The notes under the pieces: model-generated
The model's input: the letters and a program-made list of their open reading frames with translations, nothing else
The model's database searches: none
Told to the model about the DNA's origin: nothing
Part shown: piece after piece, positions 3,140-11,303 of the stretch
Layout of the letters: each line of letters begins with the position of its first letter
Position numbering within the stretch: the stretch's first letter is position 1
Made by a program: the position numbers and the translations under genes
Source: an uncultured Acidobacteriota bacterium
GTDB lineage: Bacteria > Acidobacteriota > Vicinamibacteria > Vicinamibacterales > Fen-181
Direction: 5' to 3'
Length of the DNA stretch: 64,000 nucleotides
Assembly: GCA_963741715.1 (NCBI GenBank)
Contig: CAVUJA010000001.1
Location: forward strand, 2,056,205-2,120,204

Positions 3140-3162
3140 CTGCTCTTCTACACTCGTTGGCC

Positions 3163-3990
3163 ATGCCAGAAGGTGACACGATCTTCCGCGCGGCTCGCAC
3201 GCTGCATCTCGCCCTGGCCGGACGGGCGGTCACGCGGTTCGAGACCGTGCTCCCGTCGCTTCAGCGGGTGCACGACGACCGGCCGATCACCGGTCGGACG
3301 GTGAACGCGGTGCGCGCGGTCGGCAAGCACCTGCTGATGGCGTTCTCGGGCGGGCTCGTCCTGCGCACTCACATGCGGATGAACGGCAGCTGGCACGTCT
3401 ACCGGCCGGCCGAGCGCTGGCAGCGCGGCCGCGCGGCGATGCGCATCGTCGTCGGCAACGCCGAATACGTGGCGGTGGCGTTCGACGTGCCGGTGGCGGA
3501 GTTCGTGGCGGCCCGGGAACTGGGGCGTCATTCGGAGTTGTCGGCGCTCGGGCCCGATCTGCTGGCGGAGGATTTCGACGCCGGGGAGGCCGTCGCCCGG
3601 ATGCGCGCGCGGCCGGCCGCGGCGATCGCCGACGCGCTCCTCGACCAGCGCATCGCGGCAGGCGTCGGCAATGTCTTCAAGTCGGAGGTGTTGTTCGTCT
3701 GCGGCGTGGATCCGTTCCGGCTCGTGTCCACGCTCTCGGACGGGGACCTCAGGCGGGTGATCGACGCGAGCCGCCAGCTGCTGAAGGCGAACGTGATCGA
3801 CGCCGCGCGGTCCGGGGCGCCCGGGTGGGGCGGCGCCCGCACGACCACGCGGCGGATGAATCCGGCGGCGAGGCTGTGGGTCTACGGACGCGCCGGGCGG
3901 CCGTGCCGGCGCTGCGGGACGCCAGTCAGCTGCCGCAAGCAGGGCGCGAACGCGCGCGGCACCTATTGGTGCCCGACGTGCCAGAAGTAA
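3163..3990 (+). CDS. nei: Fpg/Nei family DNA glycosylase (endonuclease VIII-like)
   Basis: The ATG at 3163 gives an N-terminal MPEGDT, with the catalytic Pro2 required by the family. The track start at 3157 is a TTG. The C-terminus carries a zinc finger, CRRCGTPV...YWCPTCQK. Confidence 0.9.
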   Translation: MPEGDTIFRAARTLHLALAGRAVTRFETVLPSLQRVHDDRPITGRTVNAVRAVGKHLLMAFSGGLVLRTHMRMNGSWHVYRPAERWQRGRAAMRIVVGNAEYVAVAFDVPVAEFVAARELGRHSELSALGPDLLAEDFDAGEAVARMRARPAAAIADALLDQRIAAGVGNVFKSEVLFVCGVDPFRLVSTLSDGDLRRVIDASRQLLKANVIDAARSGAPGWGGARTTTRRMNPAARLWVYGRAGRPCRRCGTPVSCRKQGANARGTYWCPTCQK

Positions 3991-4023
3991 GGACGGACGG
4001 GCATCCTGTGCCGGCATCGTGCC

Positions 4024-4079
4024 GTGTGTGCATTCTGCATTCTGCATTCTGCATTTTGCATTTTGCATTCTGCATTGAC
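4024..4079. repeat. 7-bp tandem array (CATTCTG/CATTTTG, about 7 units)
   Basis: Direct reading gives cattctg x3, cattttg x2, cattctg, cattgac. It lies just downstream of the nei stop. Confidence 0.9.
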
Positions 4080-4135
4080 CCTCCGTAAGCTGACCCTCCG
4101 TAAGCTGACACTCCGCGAGCTGACACTTGACGCAA
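4076..4135. repeat. 15-bp tandem repeat (TGACCCTCCGTAAGC, about 4 units, decaying)
   Basis: The units read tgaccctccgtaagc, tgaccctccgtaagc, tgacactccgcgagc, tgacacttgacgcaa. It is contiguous with the preceding heptamer array. Confidence 0.85.
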
Positions 4136-4164
4136 GTCCGCCTTCCCTGAGATACTCCACTTCG

Positions 4165-4254
4165 ATGTTGACGATCCGCACCACCGCGATGCCGATGCCG
4201 ATGCCCATGTCGATGGGCATGGGGGTCGGCGTGGTGCGTGCGATCGACGGCTAG
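4165..4254 (+). CDS. candidate Met-rich leader peptide (29 aa, MLTIRTTAMPMPMPMSMGMGVGVVRAIDG)
   Basis: There are six ATG codons within codons 9-19, which is very unusual in a GC-rich genome. An intrinsic terminator follows, and the unit lies upstream of hom-metY. No clear SD is visible. Confidence 0.45.
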   Translation: MLTIRTTAMPMPMPMSMGMGVGVVRAIDG

Positions 4255-4281
4255 TCCAGCTGCAAGCGATCGACACCAGCA

Positions 4282-4322
4282 CCCGCCGACCTGGGACGCC
4301 AGACGGCGGGTTTTGTTTTTTT
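4282..4322 (+). terminator. intrinsic terminator (attenuator 1)
   Basis: The hairpin cccgccgacctgg-gacg-ccagacggcggg is followed by ttttgttttttt. Confidence 0.75.
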
Positions 4323-4333
4323 GTGCGCCCATC

Positions 4334-4501
4334 ATGAACGACACCTTCGACGCCGCCATCGTTGAACGGAACGCCGCCAGCATCCCGCCGGCGTCGTCGA
4401 CCTCCGCCCGCGCGCGCACCACCGTCGCGACCGCGACGACCATGACCGTGCGCATGTGGACCATGTCCACGATGCGCATGCAGCCCAACGAGAGCGGGTG
4501 A
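4334..4501 (+). CDS. candidate Thr/Met-rich leader peptide (55 aa, ...RTTVATATTMTVRMWTMSTMRMQPNESG)
   Basis: There are 8 Thr and 5 Met codons in a 23-codon stretch near the C-terminus. A second terminator lies 31 nt downstream and the hom start is at 4601. No clear SD is visible. Confidence 0.35.
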   Translation: MNDTFDAAIVERNAASIPPASSTSARARTTVATATTMTVRMWTMSTMRMQPNESG

Positions 4502-4532
4502 TCCGGCAGCATTCCCGAGAGATTTCGACGGG

Positions 4533-4575
4533 GCCGTCATCCGCAAGAGGTTGCGGGTGGCGGCTTTTTTCGTTT
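4533..4575 (+). terminator. intrinsic terminator (attenuator 2) immediately upstream of hom
   Basis: A 14-bp stem, gccgtcatccgcaa-gagg-ttgcgggtggcggc with 2 G-U pairs, is followed by ttttttcgttt. It lies 26 nt before the hom SD and ATG. Confidence 0.75.
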
Positions 4576-4600
4576 GGCGAGACCAACGGGGAGAAGGCAG

Positions 4601-5638
4601 ATGTCGCTGCGAATCGGATTGGTGGGCTTCGGCACGGTCGGACAATCGGTGGCGAGGCTGCTGCTCCACGGCGGCGATCGGCGCCTGCGCCTCGTCAGGG
4701 TGTGCGGACGCCCTGGCGGCCGGGAGCGGCCTGCCTGGCTGCCCGCGTCCGTCGCCTGGACCACGCGTTTCGACGATCTCGTCGCCCGCGACATCGACGC
4801 CGTGGTCGAGCTGGTCGGCGGCGTGCAACCCGCACGGCAGTGGCTGCACAGGGCGCTGCTCGGCGGGAAATCGGTGGTGACGGCGAACAAGCAACTGGTG
4901 GCCGAGCACGGGCCCGAACTGCTCGCGCTCGCCGCCCGCGCCGGTGGCGCGCTCCGCTACGAAGGCGCCGTTGCCGGCGGCATCCCGGTCATCCGCGCGA
5001 TCGAGGACGGCCTCTCCGGCGATCGCCTGGTCAGGGTCGCCGGCATTCTCAACGGCACGTGCAACTACATCCTCACCCGCATCGAACAGCAGGGCCTGCC
5101 CTTTGCCGACGCGCTGCGCGAGGCCCAGACGCTGGGGTATGCGGAGGCGGACCCATCCGCAGACGTCGAGGGCTTCGACGCGCGGGCGAAGCTCTCGATT
5201 CTCTGCCAGGCCGCTTTCGGCATCCGCGTGCGCCCTTCGCAGGTAGAATGCGCATCGATCGCCTCCATCGCACACGAAGACTTCGCCGAGGCGCGGCAGC
5301 AGGGCTGCACGATTCGCCAGGTCTCGCGCGCGGCGCGCGTCGGGGCATCGCTGTCCGAGGTCGTGGCGTCGGTTCGCCCCGCGCTGGTGCCCCTCGACAG
5401 CCCGTTCGCGAAGGCGAGCGGATGCCAGAACGTCGTCTCGGTGCACGGCGAATTCGGCGGCGAGACGCTGTTCGCCGGCCAGGGCGCCGGCGGCGACGCG
5501 ACGGCGGTGGCGGTGGCTTCGGACCTGCTGGCCGTCGCCGCGAGAAGGAGCCAGGTTCCGTTGCCGCGCCCGATCGCGGTGACTGCCAATCCTGGGAGGC
5601 GAGGGCTGGCGGTCGCCTCACAAGTTGCGGGATTCTGA
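4601..5638 (+). CDS. hom: homoserine dehydrogenase
   Basis: The protein starts [15 protein letters not shown] (NAD-binding fold) and carries [11 protein letters not shown] and [21 protein letters not shown] motifs. An SD, ggggagaagg, lies upstream of the ATG at 4601. Confidence 0.9.
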
Positions 5639-5702
5639 CGCCCGCGTCGATCAACCTCGACCCGGAATGGGGCTCGGCCCCTTTCACAGGAAGGACAACG
5701 AC

Positions 5703-7019
5703 ATGTCGAACGAGCACGCCTACCGTCCCGCCACCATCGCCCTGCACGGAGGGCACCAGCCCGACTCGTCGAGCCGGGCGAGGGCCGTGCCGATCTACCA
5801 GACCACGTCGTACGTCTTCGACTCGGCCGACCACGCCGCCGACGTCTTCGCGCTGAAGACGCCCGGCAACATCTACACCCGCATCACGAATCCGACCACG
5901 GCGGTGCTCGAGGAACGCCTGGCGCAGCTGGATGGGGGCGTGGGCGCGCTGGCGCTCGCGTCGGGCCAGGCGGCCATCACGCTGGCCGTGCTCAACCTGA
6001 CGAGCGCGGGCCAGAACTTCGTCTCCACCCGGTCGCTCTACGGCGGCACCTACAACCTGTTCCGGCACACGCTGGCACGGTTCGGAATCGAAGCGAGGTT
6101 CGTGGACTCCTCCAACGTCGATGAGGTCGAAGCGGCGATCGACGGGAATACGCGGCTCGTGTACACGGAGTCGATTGGCAACCCGAAGAACAACGTCGAC
6201 GACTTCGACGCGATCGCCGCGGCGGCCCATCGGCACGGCCTGCCGTTCGTCGTCGACAACACCGTCTCGCCGTTCATCTTCCGCCCCTTCGACCACGGCG
6301 CCGACGTCATCGTCTACTCGCTGACGAAGTTCGTCGGCGGGCACGGCACGTCGATTGGCGGCGCGATCGTCGACTCCGGCCGGTTCGGCTGGGACAACGG
6401 CCGGTTCCCCGAGTTCACCGAGCCCGACCCGTCCTACCACGGCCTCGTCTTCGCCAGCCTTCCCGCGCCGTACATCACCAAGGCACGCGTCCAGCTGCTG
6501 CGCGACCTCGGCCCGTGCCTGTCGCCGTTCAACGCCTTCCTGTTCGTCCAGGGGCTCGAGACGCTGCCGCTGCGCATCAACGCACACTGCCTCAACGCCC
6601 TCGCCGTGGCCGAGTGGCTGGGCGCCAACCCGCACGTCGCCTGGGTCAACTACCCGCTGCTCCCCGGGCACCCCGACTACGAGCGTGCGAAGCGGTACTT
6701 CCCGAAGGGCGCGGGCGCGATCGTCGGATTCGGCATCCGCGGCGGTCTCGAAGCGGGCAAGCGGGTCATCGACGGTGTCCGGCTGTTCAGCCACCTGGCG
6801 AACATCGGCGACGCGAAGAGCCTGATCATCCACCCCGCCTCCACGACGCACCAGCAGCTGTCGGCGGAGGAACGGGTGGCGAGCGGCGTCACCGACGACT
6901 TCATCCGCCTGTCGATCGGCACGGAGGACATCGCCGACATCATCGAGGACCTGGAGCAGGCGATCGTCGCGTCGCAGCAGCAGACAGGCTCGCACAAGCC
7001 GCTGCTCCTGGTGGGCTGA
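5703..7019 (+). CDS. metY: O-acetylhomoserine sulfhydrylase (Cys/Met PLP-dependent family)
   Basis: The start region [17 protein letters not shown]...[10 protein letters not shown]...NPT matches the family. [10 protein letters not shown] contains the PLP-binding lysine region. Confidence 0.9.
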
Positions 7020-7577: not shown

Positions 7578-8042
7578 CTACTTGACCGTGAGGGTGCCCT
7601 TCATGCCGACGTTGAAGTGGCCAGGGAAGGTGCAGATGAACATGTAGTCGCCCCGCTGCGCGGGCGCGGTGAAGGTGACCTCCGCGGTTTCACCGGGACC
7701 AACCAGCTTCGTGTAGGCGAGAAGCAGCGGCTGGACGGCGGGCGCCAGGAAGTCCGTGTCGCGCGCCGACGCCGACTTGTCGACGACGGTCTTCGCGTCC
7801 GAGGCCTTCTTCAGCAGGACGAAGTTGTGGCCCATCGCCACCTTGGGCATGTTGCCGACGTCCTCGAGTACCACCTTGATCGACTCGCCCGGAGTTGCGG
7901 CGATCGCGGCGGGGGCGAACCTCATGTTGTCGCCGACCTGGATCTCGATCACCCGCGGCGCGGCCGCCGCCGGTGCGACCGGCACGACCGCGAACGACAG
8001 CAGCACGACGCACAGACTCGCAATTGCGCGCACACGTCCCTC
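7578..8042 (-). CDS. azurin-like blue copper protein (cupredoxin) with signal peptide
   Basis: The copper-ligand pattern MGHNFVL ... CTFPGH...M(KG) is present. A GTG start at 8042 is preceded by a GGAGG SD. The longer track ORF is upstream read-through. Confidence 0.8.
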   Translation of the reverse strand, partial: EGRVRAIASLCVVLLSFAVVPVAPAAAAPRVIEIQVGDNMRFAPAAIAATPGESIKVVLEDVGNMPKVAMGHNFVLLKKASDAKTVVDKSASARDTDFLAPAVQPLLLAYTKLVGPGETAEVTFTAPAQRGDYMFICTFPGHFNVGMKGTLTVK

Positions 8043-8124
8043 CGCTCTGAAGCAACCTGGTACCCACAGTGGACGAGCCCCTCCTCCACGGTAACCAATC
8101 ACCTCTGCCGGCGCAACCGCCGGT

Positions 8125-9057
8125 TCAGCCGGCGAACACGCTCTCGAGGACGAAGAGGACGTTCGCGGGCCGCTCGGCCAGCCGCCGCATGTACCACGGG
8201 AACCAGAACTCGCCGTAACTGACCAGCACCCGCAGCGGCGCGTGCTGGGCGGCGAGCCGGGCCTGGAGCGATCGCCGGATCCCGTAGAGCATTTCGAACT
8301 CGCACCCGATCGTGTTCGAGACGCGGCGGGCAAGGGCCGTGCGAATGCGGGTGATCAGCCGCTCGTCGTGCGTGCCCACCGCGAGGAACGCGCCCGCCGG
8401 CACACCCGGCCGCAGCATGCGCAGCGCGAGCTGGTGATAGTTCTCGTCCACGTCGGCCTTGCGGGGAAATGCGAGTTCGGGCGGCTCGCGGTAGGCGCCC
8501 TTGACCAGGCGGATGGCCGGAGCCAGCGGCAGCAGCGCCTCGAGGTCGTTCCGGGTGCGCCGGAGGTAGGCCTGCAGGCAGACGCCGACCCTGGTCGATC
8601 CGGCGCGCGCGCGGCGAAACAGCTCCAGCGTCGCGTCGACGTACTTGGTGCCCTCCATGTCGATCCACACCATGTTGCCGTGCGACTCGGCGCGGGCGAC
8701 GAGCAGGGCCAAGTTGCGGCCGCAGGCGTCGAGGCCGAGATCCAGGCCAAGTTGCGTGAGCTTCACCGACACCTGCGCGTCGAGCCGCATCGTCGCGATG
8801 CGGTCGATGAGTTCGAGGTAGTGTCGCGTGACCGCCTCGGCTTCCGCGAGGCTCGACAGGTTCTCGCCCAGGTGCGTGACGATGGTGCCGGCCCGGTGCT
8901 GCTCCTGCAGCTGGCGGCAGGCGTCCAGCGCCTCTTCCATGGTTTCGCCCGGCATGAAGCGGGAGGTCGATCGGCGCACGAAGGGCAGGCGTGTCGCCTT
9001 CTCGCGCAGCCAGACGCTCTCGGCCCCGGCAAGCAGGGCGCTCCTCATGATTGACAT
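8125..9057 (-). CDS. proline dehydrogenase (monofunctional PRODH family)
   Basis: Family-like stretches include VSVKLTQLGLD, VWIDMEGTKYVD, RLVKGAY and FEMLYGIR. The start is taken at MSIMRSALL (ATG at 9057). Confidence 0.75.
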   Translation of the reverse strand: MSIMRSALLAGAESVWLREKATRLPFVRRSTSRFMPGETMEEALDACRQLQEQHRAGTIVTHLGENLSSLAEAEAVTRHYLELIDRIATMRLDAQVSVKLTQLGLDLGLDACGRNLALLVARAESHGNMVWIDMEGTKYVDATLELFRRARAGSTRVGVCLQAYLRRTRNDLEALLPLAPAIRLVKGAYREPPELAFPRKADVDENYHQLALRMLRPGVPAGAFLAVGTHDERLITRIRTALARRVSNTIGCEFEMLYGIRRSLQARLAAQHAPLRVLVSYGEFWFPWYMRRLAERPANVLFVLESVFAG

Positions 9058-9225: not shown

Positions 9226-9403
9226 CTGGATGCCTTGAGGGGCTGGAATCCTTGCGAATGAGTCAAGTTCTCGCGACGCCATCCGGGCCCCTCAAGGCAT
9301 CTAGAGCCCCGCGCTCGCGCGGGGCCAGCCAACAGCGTTTCTGGTCTAGCGAGGCGGGCGTCGTCGCCGGACATGCTTGGCGGTCCGAGGCCCGCCTCGC
9401 TGG
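9226..9403 (+). repeat. structured intergenic repeat element, copy A (about 178 bp, three nested hairpins)
   Basis: About 90% identical by eye over about 133 bp to the reverse complement of 27909-28080. Hairpin 1 is gatgccttgagggg...cccctcaaggcatc, hairpin 2 is gccccgcgc-tcg-cgcggggc, and hairpin 3 is agcgaggcggg...cccgcctcgct. Confidence 0.85.
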
Positions 9404-9426
9404 ACTGCTGCACGGAAGGACGCGAC

Positions 9427-10359
9427 ATGCTCAACATTGCCCCCGACATCACCGCGCTCGTCGGACGCACGCCGCTCGTACGCCTCAACCGCATCGGCGC
9501 CAACCTGCCCGGCCGCCTGGTGGCCAAGCTCGAAAGCTTCAACCCCTGCGGCAGCGTCAAGGACCGGATTGGCGTGTCGATGATCGAGGCGGCCGAACGT
9601 GAGGGACACATCCGTCCCGACACCATCCTGCTCGAAGCCACGAGCGGCAACACGGGCATCGCCCTCGCATTCACCGCGGCCGCCCGCGGCTACCGGCTCG
9701 TCCTGCTGATGCCCGACACCATGAGCCTCGAGCGGAGGAAGATGCTCAAGGCGCTCGGCGCCGAGTTGGTGCTCACCCCGGGGGCCGAGGGCATGCCGGG
9801 CGCGATCCGGCGGGCCGCAGAACTGGCGGAGGGCGATTCCCGCTACGTGCTGATGCGTCAGTTCTCCAATCCCGCGAACCCCGACGTTCACCGCCGGACG
9901 ACGGCCGAGGAGATCTGGAAGGACACCGACGGCCAGGTCGACTTCCTGGTCGCCGGCGTCGGCACCGGAGGCACCGTGACGGGGGTCGGCGAGGTGATCA
10001 AGGCGCGCAAGCCTTCGTTCAAGATCGTCGCCGTGGAACCCGCCGCCTCGCCGGTGCTCTCGGGCGGCAAGCCGGGGCCCCACAAGATCCAGGGCCTGGG
10101 CGCCGGCTTCGTGCCCGAGATCCTCCGCACCGACTTGATTGACGAGGTCATCACGGTCTCGAACGAAGCGTCCGGGGACATGGCGCGCCGCCTCGCCAAG
10201 GAAGAGGGCATCGTGTCGGGAATCTCCTGCGGTGCCGCGACGGTCGGCGGGGTGGAGGTGGCCAAGCGCGAGGAGAACCGCGGCAAGTTGATCGTCGTCG
10301 TGCTGCCCGACACCGGGGAGCGCTACCTGAGCACCTGGCTCTTCGAGGATCAAGCATGA
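9427..10359 (+). CDS. cysK: cysteine synthase A (O-acetylserine sulfhydrylase)
   Basis: [22 protein letters not shown]...[11 protein letters not shown] contains the PLP lysine, and SGNTG is present. An SD, ggaagga, lies upstream of the ATG at 9427. Confidence 0.92.
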
Positions 10360-11303
10360 GCGAGGCACCAGACCGCCGGCTGACGGTGGATGGCGGCGGC
10401 GACGCGCCCCGCCTGTCGCTCTCCGCCGTGGTCCGGCACATGTGCTCAGACGCCGACGGCCTGATCAGGCCGGGGTCGAAGGCGCCGCACCCCAACCTGC
10501 CGTCCCGTGAAGCGCTCGCGCACATGGTGGACGGCTTTCGCTCGGTCTTGTTTCCGGGCTACTTCTTCACCCAGCGCGAGCCCACGGCCGAAGCGCTCGA
10601 GTTCCACGTCGGCGCGACGCTCGACCGGGTGATGCGCGTGCTCACCGAGCAGGTGCACCGCGCGCTGTGCTTCGCGTGCGCGGAACGCGGGCCGGACCGG
10701 TGCACCGACTGCGAGGAGCGGGCCGACGAGATCGCCAGGCGGTTCCTCGCCCGCCTGCCCGACGTCCGGCGGCTGCTGGCGGGCGACGTCCACGCCGCCT
10801 ACGACGGCGACCCCGCGGCGACGAGCCCTGCCGAGACGATCCTCTGCTACCCGGGGGTGCTCGCGCTCACCTGTCAGCGCCTCGCGCACGAACTCTACGT
10901 GCTGGGCGTGCCGCTGCTGCCGCGCATGATCACCGAGCACGCGCACACGCTCACCGGAATCGACATCCACCCCGGCGCCAGCATCGGCGAGCGCTTCTTC
11001 ATCGACCACGGCACCGGCGTCGTGATCGGCGAGACCTCCGAGATTGGCAACGGCGTGCGCCTCTACCAGGGCGTCACGCTCGGCGCCCGCAGCTTTCCGC
11101 TGGACGAGCAGGGGCGCCCGGTGAAGGGCGTCCCGCGCCACCCGATCGTCGAGGACGACGTCATCGTGTACAGCGGGGCGACGATCCTCGGGAGGATTAC
11201 CGTGGGCGCGGGCTCGATCATCGGCGGAAACGTGTGGCTCACCCGCAGCGTGCCGCCGGGCAGCCGGATCCAGCAGAAGACGGGGACGCGGACCGCGGAG
11301 TGA
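10356..11303 (+). CDS. cysE: serine O-acetyltransferase (long N-terminal form)
   Basis: The hexapeptide-repeat core reads [43 protein letters not shown]. An ATGA overlap couples it to the cysK stop. Confidence 0.88.

Follow-up and report, generated by a model that had tools for sequence, protein, structure and literature searches.

In this study, we analyzed a window of 64,000 nucleotides (nt; a stretch of contig CAVUJA010000001.1 from an uncultured Acidobacteriota bacterium) with regard to the region 3990–4600. This region lies between a gene for a glycosylase of the Fpg/Nei family (3157–3990) and hom, which encodes a homoserine dehydrogenase and is followed by metY, encoding an O-acetylhomoserine sulfhydrylase. 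As noted in a preliminary description of the sequence, two units, each consisting of a short leader open reading frame (ORF) and a terminator, are arranged in series before hom. The second unit (unit 2, 4334–4570) is the main subject here, and we consider it likely to be the second of two serial leader-peptide transcription attenuators of hom-metY, both of which would sense methionine (Met). The elements of unit 2 and their conservation, complementarity and spacing can be read directly from the aligned sequences. These elements are:

4334–4501, + strand: leader ORF 2 with 55 codons (ATG 4334, TGA 4499–4501), MNDTFDAAIVERNAASIPPASSTSARARTTVATATTMTVRMWTMSTMRMQPNESG, from the ORF call.

4442–4480, + strand: five Met codons of leader 2, M37 (4442), M41 (4454), M44 (4463), M47 (4472) and M49 (4478), from protein alignment A4.

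4450–4477, + strand: hairpin P1 within the Met codons (GCGCATGTGGAC / GTCCACGATGCGC), from folding and alignment.

4494–4502, + strand: 5′ strand of antiterminator 2, GCGGGTGAT, which consists of the last Gly codon, the TGA and one further base and pairs with 4536–4544.

4536–4544, + strand: 3′ strand of antiterminator 2, GTCATCCGC, which lies next to the loop in the 5′ arm of terminator 2, at the presumed nucleation site of its hairpin.

4530–4570, + strand: terminator 2 with its stem at 4530–4567 and a T6 tract at 4565–4570, from a terminator scan.

For comparative analysis, 13 distinct relatives with available DNA were used, which together with the window gave 14 sequences. Seven of them were obtained by protein search and six by a metagenome scan, which yielded nine loci before removal of duplicates. 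In the relatives L082–L087 and L118, the hom product is 64–75% identical to that of the window. In all 13 relatives, leaders 1 and 2, each with its terminator, precede hom-metY, and metX is usually the next gene. Since the metagenome scan was anchored on a motif of unit 1 only, the presence of unit 2 in the six metagenome loci is free of ascertainment bias. The upstream neighbors differ among the relatives (Fpg/Nei, a VTT-domain protein, Ddl, ilvC, a Big_13 protein), and therefore the tandem leader belongs to the hom operon and travels with it. The closest relatives (P0001, P0002, P0004, P0006; Joint Genome Institute, gene order only) show the order Lhr, Fpg/Nei, a gap of ~500 nt and hom-metY, and in one of them a gene for 29 amino acids was called within the gap. 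In the window alone, the folding energy of the region is unremarkable (z = −1.4), and a simple terminator scan gave one site versus 0.6 expected. The case for unit 2 as more than a chance arrangement thus comes from its conservation in 13 homologous loci and not from window statistics. A chance origin of leader and terminator, considered as a further possibility, is ruled out by this conservation.

Leader ORF 2 starts with an ATG 11 nt past the T tract of terminator 1 and contains the stretch TTVATATTMTVRMWTMSTMRM, in which the eight threonine (Thr) and five Met residues within 23 codons mentioned in the preliminary description were found again; the ORF ends with ...RTTVATATTMTVRMWTMSTMRMQPNESG. 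Six real genes of the window, with 1.2% Met and 5.0% Thr residues, served as background and gave binomial tails of 6e-6 and 1e-5 for at least five Met and at least eight Thr in 23 codons, respectively. Alignment of the 14 peptides revealed M37, M41, M47 and M49 as invariant in the family, as are the start Met and the terminal Gly. Conservation besides the Met positions is limited to single Arg and Ala residues and the terminal Gly, and the codons between the Met positions vary freely (P, S, A, R, H, C, T, W). The last 25 codons contain five to eight Met in all 14 sequences, while Thr occurs six times in the window, three times in its closest relative L118 and at most once in the other 12. Because the Met count is kept in all sequences and the Thr count is not, the conserved signal of leader 2 is methionine and not the combination of Thr and Met. 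The comparative alignment of orthologous leaders, suggested in the preliminary description as a check on Thr/Met enrichment, thus bore out the Met part and did not extend the Thr part beyond the window and L118. The Thr codons of the window leader are most likely incidental and fill the space between Met codons.

This result also bears on an alternative in which threonine is sensed by unit 2 along with methionine, comparable to the E. coli thr leader with its Thr and Ile codons, or in which Thr sensing is a strain-specific gain. Such dual sensing, by analogy to thrA, had been the interpretation in the preliminary description. It would account for the eight Thr codons within ~21–23 codons of the window leader (P ~1e-5 at the 5% background) and for the three Thr codons among the last 25 of L118. 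Also, with a second unit that is ON by default, as proposed below, any stall or slow codon upstream of 4494 would favor read-through, irrespective of the amino acid. The comparison argues against it: leader-2 ends with no or a single Thr include that of L082, whose hom product is 74% identical to that of the window, and the residues at the inter-Met positions differ widely within the family. Further evidence comes from the regulated genes themselves, which were assigned as follows:

4601–5638, + strand: hom, homoserine dehydrogenase with 345 amino acids (Pfam PF03447 and PF00742; NCBIfam NF004976, 355 bits; no ACT domain).

5625–7019, + strand: metY, O-acetylhomoserine sulfhydrylase, i.e. homocysteine synthase (Pfam PF01053; TIGR01326, 629 bits versus a cutoff of 495).

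No thrB or thrC is present in the window operon. Since hom is followed by metY, and in relatives by metX, without thrB and thrC, the regulated pathway is that from homoserine via O-acetylhomoserine to homocysteine and thus to methionine. The ACT domain, usually tied to threonine feedback inhibition, is absent from the window enzyme. The protein search placed this enzyme in an ACT-less family (60–78% identity to the window protein), while homologs below ~60% identity comprise 430–460 amino acids and carry an ACT domain (PF01842). The short ACT-less protein suggests a feedback-insensitive paralog dedicated to methionine synthesis. Taking composition, conservation and operon content together, we regard dual sensing of threonine and methionine as unlikely.

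With methionine as the conserved signal, the question whether leader 2 is translated becomes central. In each of the 14 sequences, the ATG that comes first past the T tract of terminator 1 (+9 to +22 nt) shares its reading frame with the Met run and with the TGA, which is invariant. The ORFs have eight lengths (96, 114, 120, 126, 165, 168, 183, and 186 nt), every one a multiple of 3, and there are no stops in the leader frame, while the other frames usually contain stops. By a rough estimate, the probability that seven independent length changes all preserve the frame by chance is ~(1/3)^7, i.e. 5e-4. Within the ORFs, ATG triplets occur 100 times in frame 0, never in frame 1 and ten times in frame 2; judged by eye and not individually, these ten look like GGATGA at the stop. 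Translation of leader 2 is supported by this conservation of the reading frame, which is hard to explain otherwise.

The leader-2 peptides comprise 31–61 residues. Their N-terminal parts of 6–36 residues are unalignable and show no conserved sequence, and the C-terminal part is conserved, e.g. as SMPMPMSMHMRTLSAMCMRNRSSG, MAMPMRSMAAMSMR..GG or RMRTMSSMATPMRTMCAMRMRNNGSG. A search with a profile of the 14 peptides revealed that the window leader has already been called as hypothetical protein P0123, and found five further Met-rich variants in public gene calls. Altogether, leader 2 appears among called hypothetical proteins as P0122–P0130, including the protein of the window. At leader 2, automatic gene calling often yields a spurious ORF on the antisense strand (L084, 2741–2869; L087, 2721–2879; L118, 461–589; all on the − strand), and one gene call, with P0129 among the entries concerned, merges a frame-shifted unit 1 with leader 2 into a ‘protein’ of 107 amino acids.

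The conservation of the ORF and its annotation as a gene in several assemblies could also mean that leader 2 encodes a Met-rich micropeptide with a function of its own, such as binding of metals or scavenging of oxidants, in which case the hairpin before hom would serve as a partial terminator of the usual kind or as an insulator and not as part of a sensor. Metal ions are known to be bound by MxM motifs, and a cupredoxin gene is located nearby on the opposite strand. However, a peptide function does not fit well with conservation restricted to the Met positions and the three further residues named above, nor with an N-terminal part of variable length without conserved sequence. In addition, the stop codon lies within the conserved alternative pairing to the terminator described below, and the ORF is always situated between the promoter and hom-metY, whatever the neighboring genes. 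We therefore consider the micropeptide explanation highly improbable.

Terminator 2 forms a stem of 17 pairs (nine G-C, some G-T) with a loop of 4 nt and a calculated free energy of −28.9 kcal/mol. It is the same object as the 14-bp stem previously placed at 4533–4575. It begins 28–31 nt past the stop codon of leader 2 and ends 30 nt before the ATG of hom. Across 13 sequences, 100% of the cells of its stem are paired, and most positions are invariant. The preliminary description had found no clean anti-terminator pairing for this terminator. Such a pairing exists, namely between 4494–4502 and 4536–4544, with 99.1% of the cells paired in the alignment of 13 sequences (A2). One of its pairs covaries (columns 81:128), being A-U in ten sequences, G-C in two (L082 and L087, which belong to different sub-clades) and G-U in one, and L118 contributes a second G-U at this pair. 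The 5′ member of the pair (column 81) falls on the third base of the last Gly codon, where exchanges are synonymous.

To describe the RNA as it emerges from the polymerase, nascent-RNA folds were calculated with the RNA cut before the 3′ arm of the terminator, i.e. up to the terminator loop, and ribosomes were represented by a mask of 30 nt, an assumed size. Antiterminator 2 is part of the minimum-free-energy (MFE) structure of the nascent RNA in nine of ten sequences. When the mask was placed at any codon up to the last Met codon, the antiterminator remained intact, and a mask over the final ~6 codons or over the stop reduced the pairing of the 5′ arm from ~0.8–0.9 to ~0.4–0.7. Exactly 13 nt separate the last Met codon from the antiterminator strand in each of the 14 sequences (alignment A5), and in sequence this spacer is among the least conserved stretches. 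The distance from the stop codon to the motif GGCCGTCA in the 5′ arm of terminator 2 is 30–33 nt. Fixed spacing combined with free sequence is what a ‘ruler’ set by the footprint of a ribosome would need.

For unit 2, no conserved pairing that sequesters 4494–4502 was found, and the fold without a ribosome shows the antiterminator. A candidate anti-antiterminator, GTCCGC (4465–4470) with GCGG(G/A)U (4494–4499), was not adopted, as GTCCGC is already part of the stronger local hairpin P1. In P1, 89% of the cells are paired and two pairs are changed on both sides; P1 may be a pause hairpin for RNA polymerase.

The same region allows another explanation, in which the AUG-NNN-AUG repeats are sites for an oligomeric RNA-binding protein similar to TRAP, or part of an aptamer for methionine or S-adenosylmethionine (SAM), and the ORFs are incidental. 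TRAP binds (G/U)AG repeats in the trp leader of Bacillus, and its sites overlap the antiterminator strand. In both units, five to eight evenly spaced AUGs closely precede the antiterminator strand; these AUGs, the conserved hairpin P1 inside the repeats and the missing Shine-Dalgarno sequence before leader 2 would fit such a site. Yet a binding site does not predict a reading frame kept through eight lengths to an invariant TGA without in-frame stops, or a stop codon located inside the antiterminator at a fixed 13 nt past the last Met codon. Unlike the overlapping TRAP sites, the AUG repeats with their 3-nt spacers end 13 nt before the antiterminator strand, and no riboswitch, T-box or other Rfam family was found at E ≤ 10. 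Binding of a protein or ligand to the repeats thus appears very unlikely.

For translation-dependent attenuation, the following course of events can be proposed. Both units would sense charged elongator tRNA-Met via the speed of the ribosome on AUG codons, and transcripts extending past terminator 1 would bear leader ORF 2. In the emerging RNA, 4494–4502 would capture 4536–4544, whereby nucleation of terminator 2 would be blocked and hom-metY read through. With ample methionine, the ribosome would pass the five Met codons (4442–4480) and reach the UGA, where its footprint would cover the antiterminator strand; thereby the 5′ arm would be free, and the hairpin (−29 kcal/mol) with the following U6 would stop transcription. 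With scarce Met-tRNA, the ribosome would stall at a Met codon, the antiterminator would form, and the operon would be transcribed. A ribosome stalled in this way would leave the antiterminator free because every Met codon is located at least 13 nt upstream of the antiterminator strand. Without an apparent anti-antiterminator, unit 2 would be ON by default and OFF only upon complete translation of the leader, and read-through is predicted if leader 2 is not translated. With two serial units, the read-through fractions would be multiplied and the response would become sharper; such multiplicative control is plausible. Translation, its coupling to transcription, stalling and the regulatory outcome are parts of this scheme that we infer from the arrangement and conservation of the elements.

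Unit 1, located directly upstream, comprises the following features:

4127–4156, + strand: promoter-like site with −35 TTGACG (4127–4132), an 18-nt spacer with TG, and −10 GATACT (4151–4156), from a promoter scan.

4165–4254, + strand: leader ORF 1 with 29 codons, MLTIRTTAMPMPMPMSMGMGVGVVRAIDG, containing six internal Met codons, from the ORF call.

4172–4246, + strand: hairpin of segments 1:2, which holds the Met codons and sequesters 4225–4236, from an MFE fold (z = −3.55).

4225–4290, + strand: antiterminator 1, GTCGGCGTGGTG (4225–4236) with CACCCGCCGAC (4280–4290, 5′ arm of terminator 1).

4281–4322, + strand: terminator 1 with its stem at 4281–4311 (−22.2 kcal/mol) and a T-rich tract at 4311–4322 (TTTTGTTTTTTT).

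The promoter-like site is the only one in 3900–4700 and ends 8 nt upstream of the ATG of leader 1. TTGAC is invariant in alignment A1, and a matching promoter layout is present in L085, L087, L090, and L118. A transcription start at this site can be assumed from the sequence, and leader 1 is probably leaderless or nearly so, because its ATG follows the −10 hexamer by 7–9 nt. Immediately upstream of the −35 element, two tandem-repeat arrays are present, one of a 7-nt unit (TGCATTC × 6.9, 4029–4076) and one of a 15-nt unit (TGACCCTCCGTAAGC × 3.3, 4076–4124). Heptamer repeats (TGTCTTC / TGAATTC) are also found just upstream of −35 in the relatives L094, L101, and L117. From their position, the arrays at 4029–4124 could be an UP-like element or an array of binding sites for a regulator.

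All 91 ATG triplets in the 13 leader-1 ORFs counted are in frame 0. Across the 14 sequences, 95% of the cells of the inner helix of the 1:2 hairpin and 98% of those of terminator 1 are paired. Antiterminator 1 has 96% of its cells paired but shows no covariation, and part of its 5′ strand belonged to the search pattern used. In the nascent-RNA model of unit 1 without a ribosome, the 1:2 hairpin forms and the terminator arm is partly free. A ribosome on Met codons 9–15 leads to formation of the antiterminator (0.8–0.9), and a ribosome on later codons or on the stop leaves the terminator arm free (0.2–0.6). As modeled, unit 1 has the classical four-segment layout (1:2, 2:3, 3:4). A covariance model of unit 2 scores unit 1 of the window with 24.5 bits (E ~3e-4 over 607 kb, 1.4e-7 locally), with the Met run aligned on the Met run and the terminator on the terminator, which suggests that the two units are a duplicated module.

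Thr is frequent at codons 3 and 6–7 of leader 1 (MLT..RTT; 4165–4188 in the window, and homologs). These codons could be taken in favor of the dual Thr and Met sensing discussed above, as a ribosome located there also favors antiterminator 1 in the model. Against this, the Thr codons ACC ACC of segment 1 may be kept for structure, as they pair with GGTG of segment 2.

Several points weigh against methionine attenuation as proposed for unit 2. Every sequence used is from an uncultured organism. The absence of a Shine-Dalgarno sequence before leader 2, already stated in the preliminary description, is real and applies to all 14 sequences, though hom has one (GGAGAAGG at 4590–4597, before its ATG at 4601); the unstructured U-rich tract of terminator 1 might aid initiation at leader 2. 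Folding of the full-length RNA at equilibrium always gives terminator 2, with any ribosome placement. Control must therefore be kinetic, as in known attenuators, and by these models the proposed mechanism depends on co-transcriptional kinetics. Antiterminator 2 comprises only 9 bp. Its covariation consists of one pair, in three of the 13 sequences of A2 and in a narrow clade (hom 64–78% identical), and the partner base of this pair also pairs in the terminator. For L087, the predicted nascent fold does not include the antiterminator. ATG and CATG feed hairpin P1 as well, so the conservation of ATG could be partly structural. Finally, a shortage of methionine affects initiation too, via formylmethionyl-tRNA (fMet-tRNA), which complicates stalling, especially in unit 1.

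For this region, database searches gave no relevant RNA family. An Rfam search of 3900–4700 with cmscan (E ≤ 10) returned only osmY and Mcr7 at chance level and was negative for Thr, His, Leu and Trp leaders, all classes of SAM riboswitches, and the T-box. At Rfam gathering thresholds, the whole window gave a single tRNA (tRNA-Leu). A genome scan with the hom protein identified at least 80 loci with no more than 56% identity, mostly from Acidobacteriota and Alphaproteobacteria. At 80 distant hom loci, neither a Met-rich upstream ORF nor a match of the unit-2 covariance model upstream of hom was found among the matches listed, and an Rfam search revealed no riboswitch at 20 distant hom loci.

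Also, some aspects of the genes downstream deserve mention. The real start of metY is probably ~25–35 codons downstream of the TTG at 5625, and the TIGR01326 match begins at residue 27–36. No metX follows metY in the window or is present elsewhere in the 64 kb; the sole match was a spurious tail, antisense to the cupredoxin gene. In L081 and L083–L087, the gene order is hom-metY-metX, with metX matching NF001209 in L083 (476 bits). In L082, a long-read contig, metY was called as three fragments of 322, 46, and 48 amino acids (4140–5620), probably due to assembly frameshift errors and not because of a pseudogene. In the window, metY is followed by the cupredoxin gene on the minus strand (ORF 7578–8333), and past it by a cysK-like PALP gene (9373–10359) and a cysE-like gene for a hexapeptide transferase (10356–11303).

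Leader-peptide attenuation is known for Trp, His, Phe, Leu, Thr, Ile/Val and, in actinobacteria, Cys, while methionine genes are normally described under the control of SAM riboswitches, T-boxes or protein repressors. With the enterobacterial attenuators (trpL, hisL, thrL, leuL, pheL, ilvL), the locus shares a short ORF rich in codons for the product upstream of genes for biosynthesis, an intrinsic terminator that precedes the first of these genes, an antiterminator that uses the 5′ arm of this terminator and excludes its formation, masking of the antiterminator strand by a ribosome at the stop codon as proposed here, and, in unit 1, the full 1:2 / 2:3 / 3:4 layout. In contrast to these systems, AUG would be the regulatory codon, for which the searchable literature gave no well-supported precedent, two complete attenuators would act in series, there is no Shine-Dalgarno sequence, leader 1 is probably leaderless, none of the Rfam leader families gives a match, and the host belongs to the Acidobacteriota and not to the proteobacteria. 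Another difference is that unit 2 lacks a detectable anti-antiterminator, whereby an untranslated leader would lead to read-through and not to super-attenuation. The anti-antiterminator (1:2) is a trp-type feature, which is not required by every attenuator. The Rfam family Thr_leader, i.e. the E. coli thrL type with Thr and Ile sensing, does not fit the locus: it gave no match at E ≤ 10, Thr is not conserved, and the genes are hom-metY and not thrA/B/C.

SAM riboswitches and Met T-boxes control metX, metY and hom in other phyla, and thus regulated genes and regulatory goal would be shared with the locus studied here. A Met T-box would also be alike in reading the charging of tRNA-Met, and two serial terminator-based switches can steepen the response in tandem riboswitches or T-boxes as well. 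SAM and S-adenosylhomocysteine (SAH) riboswitches and T-box leaders gave no covariance-model match, and without aptamer or T-box the proposed sensor is the translating ribosome.

Leader ORFs without a Shine-Dalgarno sequence have been described for actinobacteria with their high-GC genomes, where short leaderless ORFs are rich in cognate codons for Cys, Trp, Leu or Ile/Val (PMC1262725, PMC8079986). The leader ORFs studied here resemble them in lacking a Shine-Dalgarno sequence, in the enrichment of cognate codons and in a high-GC genome. For methionine operons in Actinobacteria, Seliverstov et al. reported no conserved RNA element (PMC1262725). In Streptomyces lividans, a tentative ‘metL’ (MSTTSDRTPATEATTTPGARCMCRRMCAF) with two internal Met codons precedes metNIQ, with termination being unclear according to the authors (PMC8079986). 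It shows a mixture of Met and Thr as leader 2 of the window does, but precedes a transporter and has no clear terminator, whereas the leaders described here combine five to eight Met codons, strong terminators and antiterminators with biosynthetic genes downstream in 14 sequences. Two leader ORFs in one transcript are known from the mgtCBR leader of Salmonella, where the short ORFs mgtM and mgtP each govern alternative stem-loops and transcription into the coding region (PMC3641672). Unlike the two terminator-based units found here, which would respond to the same amino acid, mgtM and mgtP do not each have a canonical intrinsic terminator. They also answer different signals, namely ATP and proline.

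According to Naville and Gautheret, almost no predicted attenuator of Acidobacteria has an assigned function (PMC2965389). In the searchable literature, outside of which many subscription papers lie, no earlier description of a Met-codon attenuator for hom, metY or metX, or of its doubled form, was found. The locus is probably a tandem Met-codon attenuator that uses a known mechanism, with Met specificity, two units for the same signal and a second unit that looks ON by default as new aspects. That these are the first well-supported Met-codon leader-peptide attenuators and that the two units are differently wired, unit 1 with four segments and unit 2 with three elements and ON by default, is a further claim that we regard as possible but rather doubtful.

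For annotation, the practical consequence is that such leader ORFs are now listed as hypothetical proteins or missed in favor of antisense ORFs. If the proposed function holds true, leader-peptide attenuation would gain a new amino-acid specificity and the mechanism would be extended to uncultured Acidobacteriota, with a natural case of two complete serial leader-peptide attenuators reading one signal. The locus also poses the question how a ribosome-based sensor copes with an amino acid on which initiation depends as well. With the design proposed for unit 2, failure of initiation due to a lack of fMet-tRNA and stalling at AUG codons would both be read as methionine shortage, which could explain how attenuation by Met codons works and why a differently wired second unit arose after duplication.

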